Position numbers and translations under genes: made by a program. Source: Octopus vulgaris (taxonomy: Eukaryota). Taken from it: a stretch of 64,000 nucleotides of DNA. This document shows positions 9,575 through 64,000 of the stretch, piece by piece; position 1 is the first letter of the stretch; each line of letters starts with the position of its first letter. The notes under the pieces were generated by a model. The model saw only the letters and a list, made by a program, of their open reading frames with translations, did not search any database and was not told the DNA's origin. The stretch is from NCBI GenBank assembly GCA_951406725.2, contig OX597818.1, positions 125,240,001 through 125,304,000 on the forward strand, given 5' to 3'.

Positions 9575-9617
9575 CGCCCGTTGACGAGGGACAAACATCC
9601 CGAAACTAGTTCGAGCG
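9575..9617 (+). ncRNA. Minimal type-I hammerhead ribozyme motif (C3U variant)
   Basis: CGCCCG TTGACGA GGGA-caaaca-TCCC GAAA CTAG TT CGAGCG. Stem I has 5 of 6 pairs, stem II is perfect, stem III is palindromic. Confidence 0.7.
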
Positions 9618-17058: not shown

Positions 17059-18699
17059 CGGGAAGCTTTATGAAAATAAACAAAAGACGAAGGCAGGTGG
17101 AAAACAAACAAACAATTGTATTAGTATAGCGCTCAGGAAATATAAATAAAACAAGTCTTTAACGTTTCGAGCCTACGCTCTTCAACAGAAAGATACACAG
17201 AGAGAAAAAAACACAGAAAGAAGGAGAGAAAAAAAATGCGTGCAGTAACTAACGAACCAACATGGCGATCTGATTTCGGCCAGAAGTCAAAGATCAAACA
17301 TGAGACGCGAGAGCGAAATTAGGGGAGATAATAGGGTTGAGTGACCAGCTCCAACATAAGGGTGTGTGTGTGTGTGTGTGTGTATGAGAGAGTATTAGTG
17401 CGTATGAGAGGTCTGGACGTGTGTATGTATAGGGTTGGTGTATGTATTAGTATGTATTAGTATGTATAAGGGTGTGTGTGTGTGTGTGTGTGTGTGTATG
17501 AGAGAGTATTAGTGCGTATGAGAGGTCTGGACGTGTGTATGTATAGAGTTGGTGTATGTATTAGTATGGCACATCATATATGATGTGATGTGTAAAGTCG
17601 TGTGGTGTAGTGTGGAGAGAGGAGAAGAGGGGGAGGGAATAGAGGGGGAGGGGGAGAGGGGGAGAGAGATGGGGGAGGGAGGAGAGGGGGGAGGGGGGGA
17701 GAAGGAAGGGGAGGAGGAGGGGAGGAGGAAGGAGGAAAGAGGGAGAGGGGGAGAGAGAAGGGGAGTGAGGGAGCAGAGGGAAGGGGAAGAGGGAAGGAGG
17801 GAGGGAGAAAGAGGGAAGAAGGGAAGGGGAGTAGGGGTGAAAGGATGAAGGACTGAAGAAGTAGGGGTCGGGGGGAAAGGTAGGTGAGGAGGGGGAGAGG
17901 GGGTTAGATGAGGAGGGGGGAAAGTTGAGACCAAATGGCGTATAAGAGCGAAGAGAGAAGATTAATTCCTGTTCACGGCGCAAACGGGAATCCGGATGGC
18001 CTCTGTGTAAGGACAAACCGAACACAGATAGGTGTTGCAAGGAGTGACCGGTAGAGCGGAAATGGCGAGAGACCGGTGTGTCGTTCGCAAGGTGGATGTC
18101 ACGAAGGTGTTCCGCGAACCGGTCAGCCAAGCGGCGTCCCGTTTGTCCGATGTACAAGGAATGGCAGAGAGAGCAAGAGACGCAATAGATAATATTGCTG
18201 GAGGTGCAGGTGAAGGGGTGGATGATGGGATAGGGTCGATGATGGGTGCTAGTGAGGAGGGTGGTGTTGGAGAGGTAAGGGCAAGTGCGGCAACGTGGGC
18301 GGGAGCAGGGGAACGAGCCGGGTTGGGAGGTAGGGTCAGGGAAGGAGCTATGGACCAAAAGGTCTCGAAGGTTGTGGGCTCGTTTGAAAGAGGGGAGGGG
18401 TCGGTTAGGGAAGAGGTGTGAAGTGGACGGGTCGGACTGGAGATGACGGAAAGCTTGAAGAATGGTGCGTTGGAGAGGTAGGGTCGTGGGGTGGTAAGTG
18501 AGGGGAAAAGGGAGGCGGGAGACTACAGGGCGGGTTCGGGGAGAGAGAGCAGATACACGGTCCACGGACCGTGCTCTGGCAAGGGCGGTGTGGATAGTGG
18601 TGAGGGGGTATCCACGTAGGGTGAAGTGGTGAGCCATACGTTGAGACTGAGTCTCAAAGTCATGGTCGTCACTACAGAGCCTACGTAGACGGAGGAAAT
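17055..18699 (-). mobile_element. 5'-truncated Penelope-like retroelement (Neptune-type) with 3' pLTR
   Basis: RT thumb FLRLRRLCS..RGYP, Cys-rich linker CSRPRCRTC, GIY-YIG domain. Both ends lie in (TA)n. Confidence 0.9.
17561..18637 (-). CDS. Penelope-like RT C-terminus plus GIY-YIG endonuclease (partial; the frame continues upstream to ~18699)
   Basis: CTSSNIIYCVSCSLCHSLYIGQTGRRLADRFAEH..VSRHF..H..REQELIFSLRSYTPFGLN. The remaining C-terminal part translates a CT-rich tract. Confidence 0.85.
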   Translation of the reverse strand: MAHHFTLRGYPLTTIHTALARARSVDRVSALSPRTRPVVSRLPFPLTYHPTTLPLQRTILQAFRHLQSDPSTSHLFPNRPLPSFKRAHNLRDLLVHSSFPDPTSQPGSFPCSRPRCRTCPYLSNTTLLTSTHHRPYPIIHPFTCTSSNIIYCVSCSLCHSLYIGQTGRRLADRFAEHLRDIHLANDTPVSRHFRSTGHSLQHLSVFGLSLHRGHPDSRLRREQELIFSLRSYTPFGLNFPPSSSNPLSPSSPTFPPDPYFFSPSSFHPYSPSLLPSFSLPPSLFPFPLLPHSPSLSPSPSFLLPPPLLLPFLLPPSPLSSLPHLSPPLPLPLYSLPLFSSLHTTPHDFTHHIIYDVPY

Positions 18700-20103: not shown

Positions 20104-20702
20104 GGTGGCGAGCTGGCAGAGATGTTAGCACGCCGGGCGAAAAGCTTAGCTGTATTTCGTCTGCCGCTACGTTCTGAGTTCTAATTCCGCCGAGGTCGAC
20201 ATTGCCTTTCATCCTTTCGGAGTCGATTAAATAAGTACCAGTTACGCACTGGGGTCGATAGAATCGACTTAATCCGTTTGACTGTCCTTGTTTGTCCTCT
20301 CTGTGTTTAGCCCCTTGTGGGTAGTAAAGAAATAGGTATTTCGTCTGCCGTTACGTTCTGTGTTCAAATACCACCGAGGTCGACTTTGCCTTTCATCCTT
20401 TCGGAGTCGATTAAATAAGTACCAGTTACGCACTGGGGTCGATATAATCGACTTAATCCGTTTGTCTATCCTTGTTTGTCCTCTCTGTGTTTAGCCTCTT
20501 GTGGGTAGTAAAGAAATAGGCATTTCGTCAGTCGTTACATTCCGAGTTCAAATTCCGCCGAAGTCGACTTTGCTTTTCATCCTTTCGGGATCGATAAATA
20601 AAGTACCAGTTTCGCACTGGAGTCGATGTAATCGACTTAATCCGTTTGTTTGTCCTTGTTTGTCCCCTCTATGGTTAGCCCCTTGTGGGCAAAAAAGAAA
20701 TA
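20104..20702 (+). mobile_element. SINE family A, trimeric copy (184-bp period)
   Basis: One head plus two head-less units; junctions at 20334/20335 and 20518/20519. Confidence 0.9.
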
Positions 20703-21592: not shown

Positions 21593-22524
21593 TATGTATG
21601 TATGTATGCATGTATGTATGTACGTATGTATGTATGTACGTATGTATGTATGTACGTATGTACGGATGTATGTATGTATGTATGCATGTATGTGAGTATG
21701 TATGTATGTATGTATGTATGTATGTATGTATGTATGTACGTACGTTCGTACATACGTACGTATGTATGCATGTATGTATGTATGTATGTATGTATGTATG
21801 TACGTTCGTACGTACGTACGTACGTATGTATGTATGTATGTATGTATGTATGTATGTATGTATGTATGTATGTGTGTGTATGTACGTATGTGAGTACATG
21901 TAAATGTGTGTGTTTGTGAGTGTTTTTATTTGTGGGTGCGTGCGTGTGTGAATGTGCATGTGTATGTATGTACATGTGTTTGTTAAACAAAAACGAGCTA
22001 AGAGAATTAGGTATATCAAATACCACCCAATATAAATTCTAGATTTATTAAAATTAACTCCGTTTCTTGAGCATGCATTACAATTGGCAATTGCGACTAG
22101 CTCCATGTGAGATGCTGAGATAATCTCAAGAATCAAGAATTTCCTCAAAGCTGACATGCCACGAAGGAAGTCAATGGGCTTATTGCTTGGAGAGAAGAGG
22201 ACAATCAAGTACATGCGTTTCTGCCTCAATAGGCGTCATTAGCACAACAACTGCCTTACCTTATCTCTAGTAACCAAGGAACTTTGACATATGACATAGC
22301 CTACATAATTTGCATAAATTAAAAAAGATAAATAAGTCATAGGGGCCTGTAACATGTATACGAACAATATAGACAAATGCAGGCGTATCAAATATCACAT
22401 GATATAAATTCTTGATTTATTTAAGTTATTTCAGCTTCCAGCAGCTGGATTGATTAAGTATTGAATTAAAGTACGAAAGGTGAAGATCTGAGCCTGATAT
22501 TTGATTGCTACGGTGCGAACCCAG

Positions 22525-22895
22525 GACACGTTTCTGTATTATTAAACCTTCTCAAGACATGTTTCGGTATTATTATATCTTCTCAGAACATGTTTCGGTA
22601 TTATTATACCTTCTCAGGACATGTTTCGGTATTACTATACCTTCTCAAGACATGTTTCGGTATTATTATACCTTCTCAGAACATGTTTCGGTATTATTAT
22701 ACCTTCTCAGGACACGTTTCAGTATTATTATACCTTCTCAGAACATGTTTCGGTACTATTATATCTTCTCAGGACATGTTTCGGTATTATTATACCTTCT
22801 CAGGACACGTTTCAGTATTATTATACCTTCCCAAAACATGTTTCGGTATTATTATACCTTCTCAGGACATGTTTCGTTATAATATACCTTCTCAG
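22525..22895 (-). repeat. Minisatellite of 12 x 31 bp; unit resembles a hammerhead catalytic core
   Basis: Minus-strand consensus CTGAGAA GGTAT-aata-ATACC GAAA CATG TC. Units start at 22525 and every 31 bp thereafter; the last unit is 30 bp. Confidence 0.9.
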
Positions 22896-23293
22896 CAAAG
22901 CACAGTGAGCACGAACTGACCAGAGCGCTGACTGATTCAAACATACATACAAATAAGTCACAAAATAATATTTTTTTTTATTGTGCTGACTATATGTGTC
23001 TTTCGTTTACTTGAAGCCTTGTGTGTATAGTATCTAATTTTGTCGATTCCAAATGAGAAGCGGAAAAAGTTAGCACCAGCATTTTATGAACTGAGAACAT
23101 AATGACTGTAGCAAAGAAACTACAATGTATTTTGTCAGATGCTCCACCGATTCATACTCTGAAGATGGTTTAAGATAATATTAAAAAGAATGGGAAGAAA
23201 ATAAGGACAACGACCTTTGAGAGCAGGGGAAGTGTTGGAAAAAAAGAGTTAATACATACACACATGTATATACACTTAAACGTACATGAAAAA

Positions 23294-23363
<70 letters not shown>

Positions 23364-23659
23364 CTATGTGTATAATACACACACACATTTATGTATCTCT
23401 TATTATAAAAGGCAGATTTTATCTGCCTCCTTTTGTAACTTATAGAAATCTACAATATAGGATTTCTTCAATTACAATTTACCTAGCATTTTTAAGAGTA
23501 GAATGCATCGGGTCATGCCAGGTCCAGTTTTTAAAATTTAAACTCCAATTAAGCAAAATTTACAGAAAACTCACATTCTGGTGTGTATGTCAAATGTTTT
23601 TCTTAATGTGGTTTACACCACACGCAAACGCACACACACACAAAGGGACCGAATTGTTT

Positions 23660-24371
23660 CACTGACGCTATCACCCTTCTCCTCCTTTGTCTTTGCAAGT
23701 TTGCAGCTATTAAAGTGAAAACAGTGAATCCGACAGCGATAAAGAAAACGAATTGGTACCTGAATGGAGTGAAAATTTAAAAACTGTTTCTTTCGTTGAT
23801 TTTTCTGAAGAAACTGGACCAAGCCACAGACTTTCCCAGAAGAGTAAAGCCTTAGACTATTTCTATTTACTTTTTCGAATGAGCCCATTTGAAATCATTA
23901 CGGCAGAAACGAAACGTTACGCTAAACGTAAACAAAACGAAAGAAAGGATAGTTTGTTATTTCCCACAACCTTAAATGAAATTAAGGCCTATTTTGCCAT
24001 AAATATTATTATGGGTATCAGAAAGTTACCCAGAATAACAAATTCTATCGTAAAATTTTGTTGTATACCCAATTGAATATTAGCTAATAACCCATTTTCT
24101 ATAGCGATGTTTGAACAAAATGTTAATAATTTTATATATTGTTGAATTTACCTGTATCTACCTGCAATTAGAGTCACTTTGTGACAAAAATTATAGTATA
24201 GAATTGGTTGAGGACATTTCATTAAATTATTTTCCAAAATTCACGTTAATATATTGATAAATAAAAAAGTTATTGTTGTTTAATGAAACCAGACTAAATT
24301 TATGATTACGTTAGAAATTAATTGAAACACATAAGGGGTGTATTTTGGTCAGAAATATAGTAACGAAAGGG
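23660..24371 (+). mobile_element. piggyBac remnant (internally deleted; right end retained)
   Basis: ORF 23753-24076 LDYFYLLF..IITAETKRYA..PTTLNEIKAYFAINIIMGIRKLP is typical of piggyBac/PGBD4-like transposases. End GTAACGAAAGGG|TTAA. Confidence 0.8.
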
Positions 24372-28216: not shown

Positions 28217-28729
28217 GTTTGTTCCTTCTCGAGCCACGCCTGGCTCATAAGGGCCGGTTTCCGGGTTTCCTTGGCATATAGGTTCCCCACCTGGACGGGA
28301 CGCCGGTCCGTCGCAGTTGAGCTGCAAGATGCAGGAGGAAAGAGCGAGAGAAAGTTGTGGCGAAAGAGTCAGCAGAAGTTCGCCATTACCTTCTGCCGGA
28401 GCCGCGTGGAGCTTGGGTGTTTCGCTCATAAACACACACATCGCCCGGTCTGAGATTCGAACCCGCGATCCCTCGACCGCGAGTCCGCTGCTCTAACCAC
28501 TAGGTCATGTGCCTCCACGCACAAATACATACACACACATCGTCCGGTCTGAGATTCGAACCCGCGATCCCTCGACCTCGAGTCCGCTGCTCTAACCACT
28601 AGGCCATATGCCTCCACGCACAAATACATACACACACATCGCCCGGTCTGAGATTCGAACCCGCGATCCCTCGACCGCGAGTCCGCTGCTCTAACCACTA
28701 GGCCATGTGCCTCCAAGCACAAATACATA
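28217..28729 (-). mobile_element. tRNA-derived SINE family C with triplicated head (99-bp period)
   Basis: Head GAGGCACATGGCCTAGTGGTTAGAGC..GGTTCGAATCTC occurs three times. Flanking direct repeat ACGCACAAATACAT. Confidence 0.85.
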
Positions 28730-28866
28730 CGCACGCATAATTTCTATGTCATTATTTCTTATTCACACCTCTCATGTTTTGTCTTTTTCAGTTACATTTT
28801 ATTTGATTCCCTCTCTTCTCTGCCTGTCTCTCTCTCTCAAACACTCTTTCTCACTCTCTCTTTCTC

Positions 28867-34511: not shown

Positions 34512-34989
34512 CGGGCTTCTTCAATTTCCGTCTACCAAATCTACTCACAAGGCTTTGGTCGGCCCGAAGCTATAGTAGAAGACACTTGGCCAAGGTACCA
34601 AGCAATGGGACTGAACCCGAAACCATGTGGTTGGTAAGCAAGCTCCTTTCCACACAGCCACTCTTGCTTCTCTCTGGTTCTTATAATATATATAATGGCT
34701 GTAATCAAATAGTGGAGACAAGTAAAAGAATAAAAGAATATATAAATATACATACATATATAGTGTTGTGTCTGGGGAGAGTCATTCTCTTTTAGTACCT
34801 TATTATTTAACACACTCACCGGTAAAGTTTCCACTTATTTCCACACACACACACTGACCCACACACATGCGCACAAACAAACAAAAGGGAACGCAGTGTA
34901 AATAACGGACAGAATCAGGACTATTGAAAAGGTTGCAAGACGCAACGAAAATTTTAGGAAAATAAAAAGACGAAATAAGTGGAAAAACA

Positions 34990-35954
34990 GGAGAGTACGG
35001 CGGGTGTGGCAGCAATTTCCAGCCATGCATTTGAATGGCTTCCTTGGTCATATTGGCGATATGAGGGCGGGCGTAGTCGTGCAGCAGAAGAACTCCATGC
35101 TGCCGATTAGGTCTTTCCTCTTGAATAGCCGTGTTGAGTCGTTCCATCTGTTGAACATAGAGTTCCGCGTTGACCGTGTGGTTCCGTTCAAGCAATTCGT
35201 AATGAATAATCCCTTCCCAGTCCCACAATACGCACAACATCGTTTTACACGGGGTTAAGCCATTCCTTACGCTGCATCATATTGATGTACAGGTACCATT
35301 TCTCGTCCTCAGTAACGATTCAGTAAAGAAATATTTGCTTGTGTCCATGAGTTGAACGGTGACGAGCATGCAAATCATATTGTGGCTCGTTGATTTTTGT
35401 TGTTGTCACTTAAAGCATGCGGAACCCATGATCCATACTTCTGAACCTTTCCCATCGAGTGAAGATGCTTCTCTATAGCAGTGTGGGAGCATTTCATTTT
35501 CTGTGCCAGTTCCCTTGTCGTTTGACGAGAATTTTCGTGCAAAAGTTGGTTTAATCGCTCTTCATCGAACTCATCTGGACGGCCAAAACGAGGTGCGTCT
35601 TTGAGGTCAAAATTTCCATTTTTTAACTTGGCATACCAATCACGAGCGGTTCTTTCAGCTATGGCACCCTCTCCATACACAGCACAAATGTCATGAGCAG
35701 CTTTTGCGGCCTTAGAACCTTGATTAAAAGCAAAAAGACGTGGGTGTCGAAAATGCTCGTTTTTCTTAACTTGACATTCCATTTTAATGATCTGAAAATA
35801 AACAAAAAGTAACAAAAATTAACTAGTAAAACAAAAAAAAATTCCAAAATGATTCAAAAATATAATTCTCAAAAAAAAAAAAGATTCTAAAATTTAAAAA
35901 CGCAATAAATTCCAAAATTAAAAAAAAACGGCGGGAACTTAGTTTCCAACCCAA
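34990..35954 (-). mobile_element. Mariner element, 3'-truncated, transposase pseudogene
   Basis: TIR TA|TTGGGTTGGAAACTAAGTTCC. MECQVKKNEHFRH..WVPHAL, then WDWEGIIHYELL..HDYARPH..HPPYSP in a separate ORF. Confidence 0.92.
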
Positions 35955-59859: not shown

Positions 59860-61144
59860 CAGGGGCTGGACAAAATAATGGAAACATTAAAATTTAAAAC
59901 AAATTTATTTTAATACGGGGCAGGACCGAATTCTACTCGTACAAAGTTTGAATTGTTTTCAAACGAATTTTGTCCATTCTTCAGCTAGAACAGTCTCCAG
60001 TTTTTGTAGTGATGATGGTGGATGATATCGACTCCCTACTTGTTTTTTTTTTAAATCCACCATAAATGTTCAATAAAATCGAGATCTAGGGACTGTGGTG
60101 GCCAGGTAAAATGTTCAACTTCACTAGAATGCTCCTCGTGCCATTCAGTAACAAATTTAACTGTGTGAATTGGTGAATTTTCATCCTCAAAAATTGCGTT
60201 TCCCTCCGAAAACAGTTCCGCAACCAGAGCATGAATTTGATCAGATAAAATGCTTAAATAGTCTTCGCTATTAATTCTGCCATGAATGGAAACCGCTGGG
60301 CCGGCGGATTTCCAAGATATAGTCCCCCAGATCATCACACATCCTCCACCAGGTTTCAGAGTTGGAAGAAGGCAGTCTGGGTCAAATGCTTCCTTTGGCT
60401 GTCTCCACATGTTTATTTGGCCGGTGGTCGGAAATAAGGTAAAGGATGACTCGTCCGGGAAAATAACATTCTTCCACTACTTTAGGGACCAATTCTGTAG
60501 CTTTTTTACTCCATTCTAAACGCTTTGCAACGTTTGATTTTGAAAGCAGTGGTTTTCTGATTGCAGCATTCCCGTGAAATCCGGCTTTGTGTAGCTCCCA
60601 GCGAACAGTTTTTGTGCAAAGTGGGTTCTCAAAGTGGTTATTAAGCTATGCAGTAATTTTGGGAGCTGTACTTATGTGATCCTTTCTAACAATTCGTGTA
60701 AGAGTCGGAAGAAGGCAGTCTGGGTCGAATGCTTCTTTTGACTGTCTCCACATGTTTATTTGGCCGGTGGTTCCTATCTGAAAGTTTTGGTTTTCTTCTG
60801 GGGTCTTGTTTCGACGAGGAGGATTTTCTCTCTTTCTCAAAGGCTGTCATTACTTTCGAGACCGTACTTCTTGATACACCAAACATTTCGGCTGTTTTCG
60901 TTACATTAACATCTGCCATACGTGCATCAACAATTTGACCGCTTTGAAAGTCCGATAGATCTGTCATTTTAATGAATTTTAATTACTTTTTTTGATGATA
61001 TCTGAAAAGAAACAGCAATTTTAGCAAAACATATTAAGCAACACTAATAATAAATAAAAAAACATAAAAAGAAACAAGCTTTTGACGGTTTAATAGATAT
61101 TTCAAAATTATGATGATAGGTGTTTCCATTATTTTGTCCAACCC

Positions 61145-62894: not shown

Positions 62895-64000
62895 TTAATA
62901 CGCAAAACGAACAATTGAAATGTAATCGATCGGTAGGACTACATACTTTAGTATTTTGTTTGCAGTTTTTAATTCAGAAACTCTTTTTGGCATTGAACTG
63001 TTGAGCTTTTTGATTGTCTCTTGTGGAATTTCTGCCCACTTTTCACGCAACAATCGAAATAATTCATCTTCAGATTTAGGTTTCTGTCGATTTTTTCGTA
63101 TAGCTCTATCTAGTATACTCCAAAGATTTTCAATTGGGTTCATGTCAGGAGATTGGCTCGGCCAAGGAAGCTTTCTGATCTCATTTTCAGTCAACCATTG
63201 TTGATTCCTTTTCGCTGTGTGGCATGAAACCCCATCTTCCATGAATAAAAACTCATTTTTCGTTATCGTGTGAATACATTGGAAGTAATCCTTGCTTCAG
63301 TATTTCGATGTACTTTTCAGAGTTTATGATTCCAACACATTCGATCAGCTCAGAACGACTATTGCTGGTGACAGCTCCCCATACCATTACAGAGATACCG
63401 CCATGTTTCACAGTTGGTTGGAGTCGTTTCAAATCAAATTCTTGATTGGGAAGCCTCCAGACCCAAATACGTCCACTGTCTGAAAATAATGCAAATCTGG
63501 ATACATCCAAGAAAATTACGCTATCCCAAAATAAACTAGATTTTTCTGACATCTCCTTAGCCCATTTCTTTCTTTTCATGATATTAATTGGTTGAAGGAG
63601 AGGTTTTCTTCTAGCTGCTCGTCCATAATACCCAAGCTTATGCAGATATGTAACACACGTTCTTGGACTACCTTCTAAATGTTTTGCAATGTCAGAAGCC
63701 TTCGAATGGGGTTCGTTTTCTACAATTCTCTTCAAACAGCGAAGCTTCCTTTCCGAGGGCCCAGGTTGGCTGGGACGAGAATCTGTTGATTCTTTTCCTT
63801 GGCTTTTGAATTGCATTATAATTCTATTAACAGTAGCAAGAGGAATTTGAAGATTTTCGGCAATTTTTCGCTGGCTAAGACCAGCCTCAGATTGCCCAAC
63901 AATACGACCTCTTTGAAAATCTGACAGTTCTGCTGAATTTTTTGTGCGTGGCATGGTTGCTCTTAACAAATGTTTAATATAATGGCACCTGGAATGAAAA
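62895..64000 (-). mobile_element. Tc1 (DD34E) element with transposase split into two ORFs; runs off the window
   Basis: ORFs 63253-63969 ([31 protein letters not shown]) and 62895-63242 (DGVSCH..WPSQSPDMNPIENLW; 34 residues between D and E). Confidence 0.93.

Follow-up and report, generated by a model that had tools for sequence, protein, structure and literature searches.

A minisatellite of twelve hammerhead ribozyme cores, most likely born inside a mobile-element relic

A row of hammerhead ribozyme cores set head to tail, with a cleavage site abutting the next core each time, raises the question of whether it is a satellite amplified from a ribozyme core, and probably dead, or a multimeric ribozyme in which neighbouring units supply the missing helix. 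The original prediction for this locus had allowed for both. The array lies in the window (the whole 64,000-nt stretch analysed here, G000:C5:125240001-125304000 of a 2.8-Gb assembly), which is rich in microsatellites and transposon remnants. Sequence comparison favoured the first reading, probable loss of activity included, and added to it a parent family and a likely mechanism: very probably, the array represents twelve copies of the 31-base core of one family member, standing between that member's own helix-I strands, likely the product of local tandem duplication, with catalysis predicted to be lost.

TRF called a repeat at 22522-22895 (period 31, 12.1 copies, 88% matches), and splitting the minus strand of 22525-22895 into units gave twelve head to tail, eleven of 31 nt and one of 30 nt, as had been predicted for these positions (twelve units of ~31 nt). 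The features of the locus are:

22896..22907, minus strand: 5' flank of the parental hammerhead, with the helix-I 5' strand at 22896-22901 (weight matrix, 29 family loci)
22525..22895, minus strand: twelve hammerhead cores head to tail, each from C3 to H17 (TRF and unit split)
22866..22895, minus strand: unit 1, 30 nt, the sole core with a helix-I 5' strand upstream; C3-A8 and a G-A mismatch in helix II
22618..22648, minus strand: unit 9, with a U3-A8 pair and the rest of the core and helix II intact; without a helix-I partner
22480..22524, minus strand: 3' flank of the parental hammerhead, with the helix-I 3' strand at 22519-22524, followed by ~40 family bases (family pattern and matrix)

Each unit starts at C3 of the core, continues with helix II, GAAA and a short palindrome, and ends at the cleavage site. 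The core spacing, the GAAA and a GUH site are kept in all twelve units, in agreement with the minus-strand consensus first proposed (CTGAGAA-GGTAT-aata-ATACC-GAAA-CATG-TC, with hammerhead core spacing); an A instead of G at position 8 was also found in 12/12 units, and the expected GUC/GUU site proved to be GUC in eight and GUU in four. Other parts of that description hold for some of the units. The palindromic helix III reads ACAUGU, as described, in 9/12 units and ACGUGU in the other three. Helix II, described as five base pairs closed by G10.1-C11.1, has its full 5 bp in 6/12 units, while two have G10.1-U11.1 and four have internal mismatches; the G10.1-C11.1 closing pair itself is present in nine. 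At the 3:8 position, an unpaired C-A is found in nine units and U-A in three: beside the two UUGAGAA units already noted there is a third U3 unit (22804-22834), which reads UUGGGAA and is the only one of the twelve with A6>G. Another of the three has a broken helix II, and unit 9 is the only unit to combine a paired 3:8 position with an otherwise intact core and helix II. Units 2-12 hold 10 distinct substitutions, of which two fall in conserved core bases; helix II is broken by three and left with wobbles by two, and there is no compensating change among them.

Might an ordinary A+T-rich minisatellite merely look like a hammerhead? In keeping with such a coincidence, Rfam gave no match at gathering score in the 64-kb window and, around the array, no hammerhead model among 27 weak matches (E ≤ 10), so that the hammerhead assignment rests on the motif and on family homology. 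Against it, a relaxed core descriptor matched only 23 of 200,000 shuffled array units, a check proposed with the original prediction that speaks against a chance core, and the unit, like both flanks, shows homology to a family whose members have hammerhead helices. As regards homology with that family coincidence is refuted, and we give it a probability close to nil. A protein-coding role for the array was also considered (plus-strand open frames, with one sub-threshold DUF2102 match) and dismissed as a repeat artefact.

The family was recovered with partial patterns of the hammerhead. Genome-wide, the core pattern gave 256 matches compared to 11 for a reversed control, the core with the 3' strand, a continuation that many of these matches share, gave 93, and the 5' strand with the core start gave 75, the control being 0 for each of the latter two. 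In 29 family loci, helix-I pairs 1 to 6 are formed in 15, 17, 23, 25, 22 and 24, respectively, and 27 single family copies align gap-free with both ends of the array, apart from one gap in unit 1. Pairing in the hammerhead helices of the family alignment reaches 75%, compared to 22-42% for slid controls. Covariation is weak, since its level was reached in 12 of 500 shuffles and is often reached by relatedness alone, with the 3' columns fixed by the search pattern; the pairing of 15.1-16.1 and 15.2-16.2 in 29/29 alignment rows is fixed by that pattern as well. Copies picked on their 5' flank often have a damaged GAAA or cleavage site, which points to an old and decaying family. We read the parent family as one of dispersed, decayed type I hammerheads. 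The genome search that had been advised for a parent and for further arrays thereby yielded a family of single hammerheads with helix I, and no other array.

Helix I, which the original prediction took to be absent, is indeed missing from the single units, but one pair of helix-I strands brackets the array as a whole. The 12 nt before the first core rank in the top 1e-5 of ~128,000 window positions under a 5'-flank weight matrix from 29 family loci, which had been picked on the core and the 3' side with the 5' flank outside the search pattern; their score is 10.4, compared to a leave-one-out family median of 6.3. On the other side, the 45-nt 3' flank has a score of 8.8, within the top 0.034% of window positions and above the family median of 6.8, under a 3' matrix for which 20 of 30 loci were chosen on the 5' flank only and kept when the GAAA was in register, and under the same matrix the 11 internal junctions of the array score -1.3 to -8.1. 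The last unit together with its 3' flank fits the family pattern, being one of the 93 genome matches. Profile HMMs made from longer family flanks did not detect the array locus, which indicates that the homology of its flanks is short; the 350 bases upstream had one weak genomic match. On the strength of the two flanks, we conclude that the array sits within one family copy, in the order 5' helix strand, twelve cores, 3' helix strand.

The 3:8 position was counted by eye in the 92 other family matches (array excluded), giving 69 C3-G8, 13 C3-A8, 9 U3-G8 and 1 U3-A8. Because of these counts, A8 is best read as a common and uncompensated lesion in the family. U3-A8 is a described natural variant of the core (PMC4209133), and its presence in the array had suggested a rescue of A8. 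Selection for such a rescue was not supported: the single U3-A8 among the 92 compares to ~1.5 expected if the two positions were independent, and two of the three U3 array units are otherwise damaged. Among individual family members, L002 matches an array unit at 94% over 36 bases, has A8 and carries CTGAG directly after the site; L111, L112 and L114 have G8 plus CTGAG after the site, and L164 has the same helix II as the array, but G8. L002 and L111-L116 are near-identical family hammerheads clustered at G000:C28 (0.60-0.92 Mb) in apparent duplicated gene segments. This cluster holds the nearest relatives of the array unit, and two copies within L112 are 293 bases apart.

Metazoan Penelope-like elements (PLEs) carry minimal type I hammerheads, in some of which helix III is small and palindromic (Cervera and de la Pena 2014, PMC4209133). 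As characterised there, these share with the array and its family the type I layout, a short helix I, G10.1-C11.1 and a palindromic helix III, and with the family the many dispersed single decayed copies per genome and the U3-A8 variant. A short palindromic helix III and many dispersed copies (the 93 and 75 pattern matches, with no control matches) were both found here. Unlike the PLE hammerheads, the array repeats the core alone 12 times inside one helix I and has unpaired C3-A8 in 9/12 units, and the family lacks an extra base between 9 and 10.1 and has no PLE ORF found beside it: around 60 family loci, which are old copies, tblastn with one divergent 627-aa query gave no PLE protein match up to a distance of 1.5 kb. 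The ancestor of the array resembled the minimal, dimer-dependent type I hammerheads described from PLEs (PMC4209133; PMC6765202). More weakly, we infer that terminal repeats of a Penelope-like retroelement gave rise to the parent family.

How might one core have become twelve? The parent copy would already have carried G8>A before amplification. The first duplication would then have used a short direct repeat: the CTGAG with which the core begins and, at a distance of exactly 31 bases, the opening letters of the 3' helix strand. A slip or repair event between these two would produce a 31-base duplication in the observed phase. The 3' helix strand starts with CTGAG in several paralogues and with CTGGG at the array, whose outer junctions have in common an exact CTG (3 nt), or 4 of 5 positions of CTGAG/CTGGG. 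In 28 family copies, the start of this strand is CAGAG in 12, CTGAG in 7, CAAAG in 4 and CGGAG in 3, and of 44 distinct single cores, 6 carry the 5-nt CTGAG repeat at a distance of 31 bases, several of them being duplicates of the one C28 cluster. Later growth could have proceeded in blocks of three and six units, through unequal exchange or slippage. Units three and six apart differ least, with mean differences of 2.1 (lag 3) and 2.2 (lag 6), compared to 2.7-4.0 at the other lags of 1-8; variants shared between units return at this spacing, a pattern that block duplications would leave. The array would have drifted since its amplification. Since a single-core ancestral allele of this locus is absent from the data, the order of events is one that we infer.

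Such a course has parallels among minisatellites derived from transposable elements (TEs), of which ~7,276 are given for human, 2,663 of them from Alu, with microhomology as a route to duplication (PMC9659126). As in the cases covered by that review, a short internal segment of a dispersed repeat appears to have been amplified in place: the head-to-tail units are homologous to an internal part of the repeat, the flanks are retained, and a short direct repeat stands at the unit borders. Unlike in those cases, what was amplified here spans exactly one ribozyme core, with C3 at one end and the cleavage site at the other; the words 'ribozyme' and 'Penelope' do not occur in the review's main text. 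With its first five letters repeated immediately behind the cut site, the core would carry a built-in 31-base duplication trap.

The unit borders coincide with cleavage sites, which is also what an RNA route would give: a 31-nt piece between two sites would have been circularised, copied by rolling circle by a Penelope-type reverse transcriptase and inserted as an ultra-small retrozyme. Rolling-circle copying has been proposed for PLEs and retrozymes (PMC4209133; 10.64898/2026.07.22.740005), and a young PLE family is abundant in this genome. We nevertheless regard this route as very unlikely. A 31-nt piece between two sites already needs a duplication, the array stands in register between both parental flanks, as for duplication in place, it occurs at one locus only, and its variants are shared by units three and six apart, as stepwise DNA exchange would leave them.

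A different proposal would make the hammerhead ancestry incidental and have the array kept as a cluster of transcription-factor half-sites of the form RRRCWWGYYY, which we take to be the p53-type half-site consensus. Nine of the 21 such decamers in the 64-kb window fall in the array, 31 or 62 bases apart. On the other hand, the decamer is inherited from the family's GAAACATGTC(C), and therefore needs no selection; it is lost in 3/12 units, and the half-sites are 21 bases apart instead of paired. Pfam, run on 110 of the 111 open stretches of at least 60 aa, recognised no host gene in the window, the matches being transposase-type domains and one sub-threshold DUF. Taken together, we consider a DNA-element role a very doubtful explanation indeed, and keep to local duplication of a ribozyme core.

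Within this genome, the head-to-tail pattern marks only this locus. Across the genome, a head-to-tail pattern gave 11 matches, 10 of which lie in the array; the eleventh, L080 (G000:C5:136494925), was rejected as a second array, its resemblance being due to a perfect 20-base palindrome over the 5' side of a single family hammerhead that mimics a core. A looser pattern (second box within 25 nt) added 7 loci, of which only L166 has a second full core, and a DNA search of the genome with the array, which skips simple repeats, returned the array itself and L002 only. The array of head-to-tail cores is thus a single locus in this genome. At L166 (G000:C21:2169942-2170034), two family cores are 55 nt apart and a 3' helix-I strand follows only the second, a layout that we read as an independent two-copy local duplication of the family core. 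In metagenome and viral collections, which are mostly prokaryotic and thus tell little about animals, the pattern had 38 and 4 matches, respectively, and 0/42 had a helix II of at least 4 bp in both cores.

Four of 13 sequencing runs were used for a comparison with other organism labels. Contigs of labels B and C cover the left flank and part of the array, ending at 22572 (the label B contig differs over 22003-22572 by 23 other letters and 20 gap letters), and 61-base pieces across a unit junction were found for labels B and D. The contigs break off inside the array, and bins 22840-22923 are uncovered in the four runs, to which we give no weight. If the labels correspond to distinct species, an array of at least two units predates their split, and the junction-spanning contigs mean that the array is old. 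Its persistence across labels fits neutral age, but also weak retention.

Does the array cleave RNA? In all 12 x 12 pairings of cores and sites, a single helix-I pair out of six is open to cores 2-12, whichever of the twelve sites is used, and it is never the first pair, which indicates that neighbouring units do not supply helix I and removes the multimeric arrangement that the original prediction had offered as its second option. Core 1 forms 4 of 6 pairs with the internal sites and 5 of 6 with the last. A functional type I hammerhead has a Watson-Crick 3:8 pair and a helix I that joins every core to its site, and the array departs from this in both respects. An unpaired C3-A8 inactivates hammerhead cleavage. 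Given A8 in all twelve units, nine of them with unpaired C3-A8, and cores 2-12 without helix I, the array is most likely unable to cut RNA, as far as its sequence allows a prediction. The C3-G8 pair is mentioned in PMC3884650, and a search of literature open without subscription found no direct cleavage test of C3-A8.

The pairing of core 1 leaves one form of activity to be weighed. Because the 3' helix strand and the next core have CUGAG in common, core 1 with its natural 5' helix-I strand could use any of the twelve sites, pairing with the CUGAG after it or with the terminal flank, and be weakly active; a hammerhead with one helix I and twelve cores would thus cut in cis at any of them and release a 31-nt ladder. 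In this reading, core 1 would also take its helix-III partner in cis from the palindrome of another unit, with tandem growth replacing the dimer that minimal hammerheads require. The 4 or 5 pairs of core 1, the palindromic helix III intact in 9/12 units, the junction-spanning contigs under other labels and the weak activity reported for minimal hammerheads as dimers and trimers (PMC4209133) all agree with this idea. Opposed to it, core 1 combines C3-A8 with a G-A mismatch in helix II and U-U at the second helix-I pair, and unit 9, the sole good core, has no helix I. The predicted helix-I pairing probability is 0.000 at 12/12 sites, a value that discriminates poorly, most single family copies also being near zero. 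We judge multi-site use of core 1, with ladder release and a borrowed helix-III partner, to be exceedingly unlikely. If it were true, the architecture would be one that we have not found described, with C3-A8 tolerated in a multimer. Forcing the hammerhead on the array costs 17-24 kcal/mol, compared to 2.9-19.4 (median 11.1) for 28 single family copies under a looser constraint; as single copies also fold unfavourably, folding energy is given no weight as evidence.

Non-LTR retrozymes, a further close parallel, differ from the array in scale. In animals, each of their units contains a complete hammerhead; unit lengths are 150-450 bp according to Cervera and de la Pena 2020 (PMC7229834) and 51-972 bp, across 35 genomes, according to Li, Clavereau and Pollet 2026 (bioRxiv 10.64898/2026.07.22.740005), in whose main text mollusc and cephalopod terms are absent. 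As presented in these sources, retrozymes have in common with the array the head-to-tail repeat, a hammerhead sequence in each unit and a proposed origin by local amplification of PLE terminal sequence. Unlike them, with a complete type I hammerhead per unit and units of ~50-1000 bp at several loci, the array has a 31-bp unit without helix I at one locus. In a search that covered literature open without subscription and preprint main texts, we found no core-only hammerhead minisatellite.

Most likely, the array is an unusual fossil of a known kind, a minisatellite born inside a mobile-element relic, and as such it would provide a clean example of the birth of a satellite from the remains of a ribozyme. 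It supports the idea that Penelope-type elements give rise to local tandem repeats through their terminal hammerhead segments, here on a scale below that of the reported retrozyme units. It also implies that matches to the core motif in tandem repeats need a check for helix I. Cleavage by the array would establish a new multimeric layout, but its sequence argues against this.

Several other repeats surround the array. The repeat at 22009-22450 (minus strand), downstream of it, carries a different hammerhead and was rejected as its parent. This is a high-copy old repeat (70-80% identity, period ~370-420 bases) with a canonical-looking type I hammerhead at ~22210-22242 (minus strand), which has an A/G core change here and, in better copies, a 6-bp helix I and a 5-bp helix II; the repeat looks like a decayed non-LTR retrozyme family. 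At 17924-18688 (minus strand) lies the endonuclease end of a young Penelope-like element with at least 150 copies at 97-99% identity. Its Pfam GIY-YIG match is only weak (E 0.016), and in one copy, L130, an RT-like frame lies upstream. Of 30 loci of this family, 26 have a conserved hammerhead-like motif 650-910 bases downstream (here at 17185, minus strand, and 16833, plus strand), which we read as a putative atypical hammerhead core with U at position 6.

Units of 184 and 99 bases, presumably SINE pieces by their look, are tandemly triplicated at 20152-20702 and 28432-28738, which indicates that local tandem duplication of repeat fragments is common in the window. DNA transposon remnants are found at 23395-24073 (plus strand) and at 34806-35818, 60054-60982 and 62898-63999 (all minus strand), with DDE_Tnp_1_7 (presumably piggyBac-like), mariner and Tc1-type domains. 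Single hammerhead-like motifs of other families are present at 9581, 30233, 43716, 53245 and 62793.
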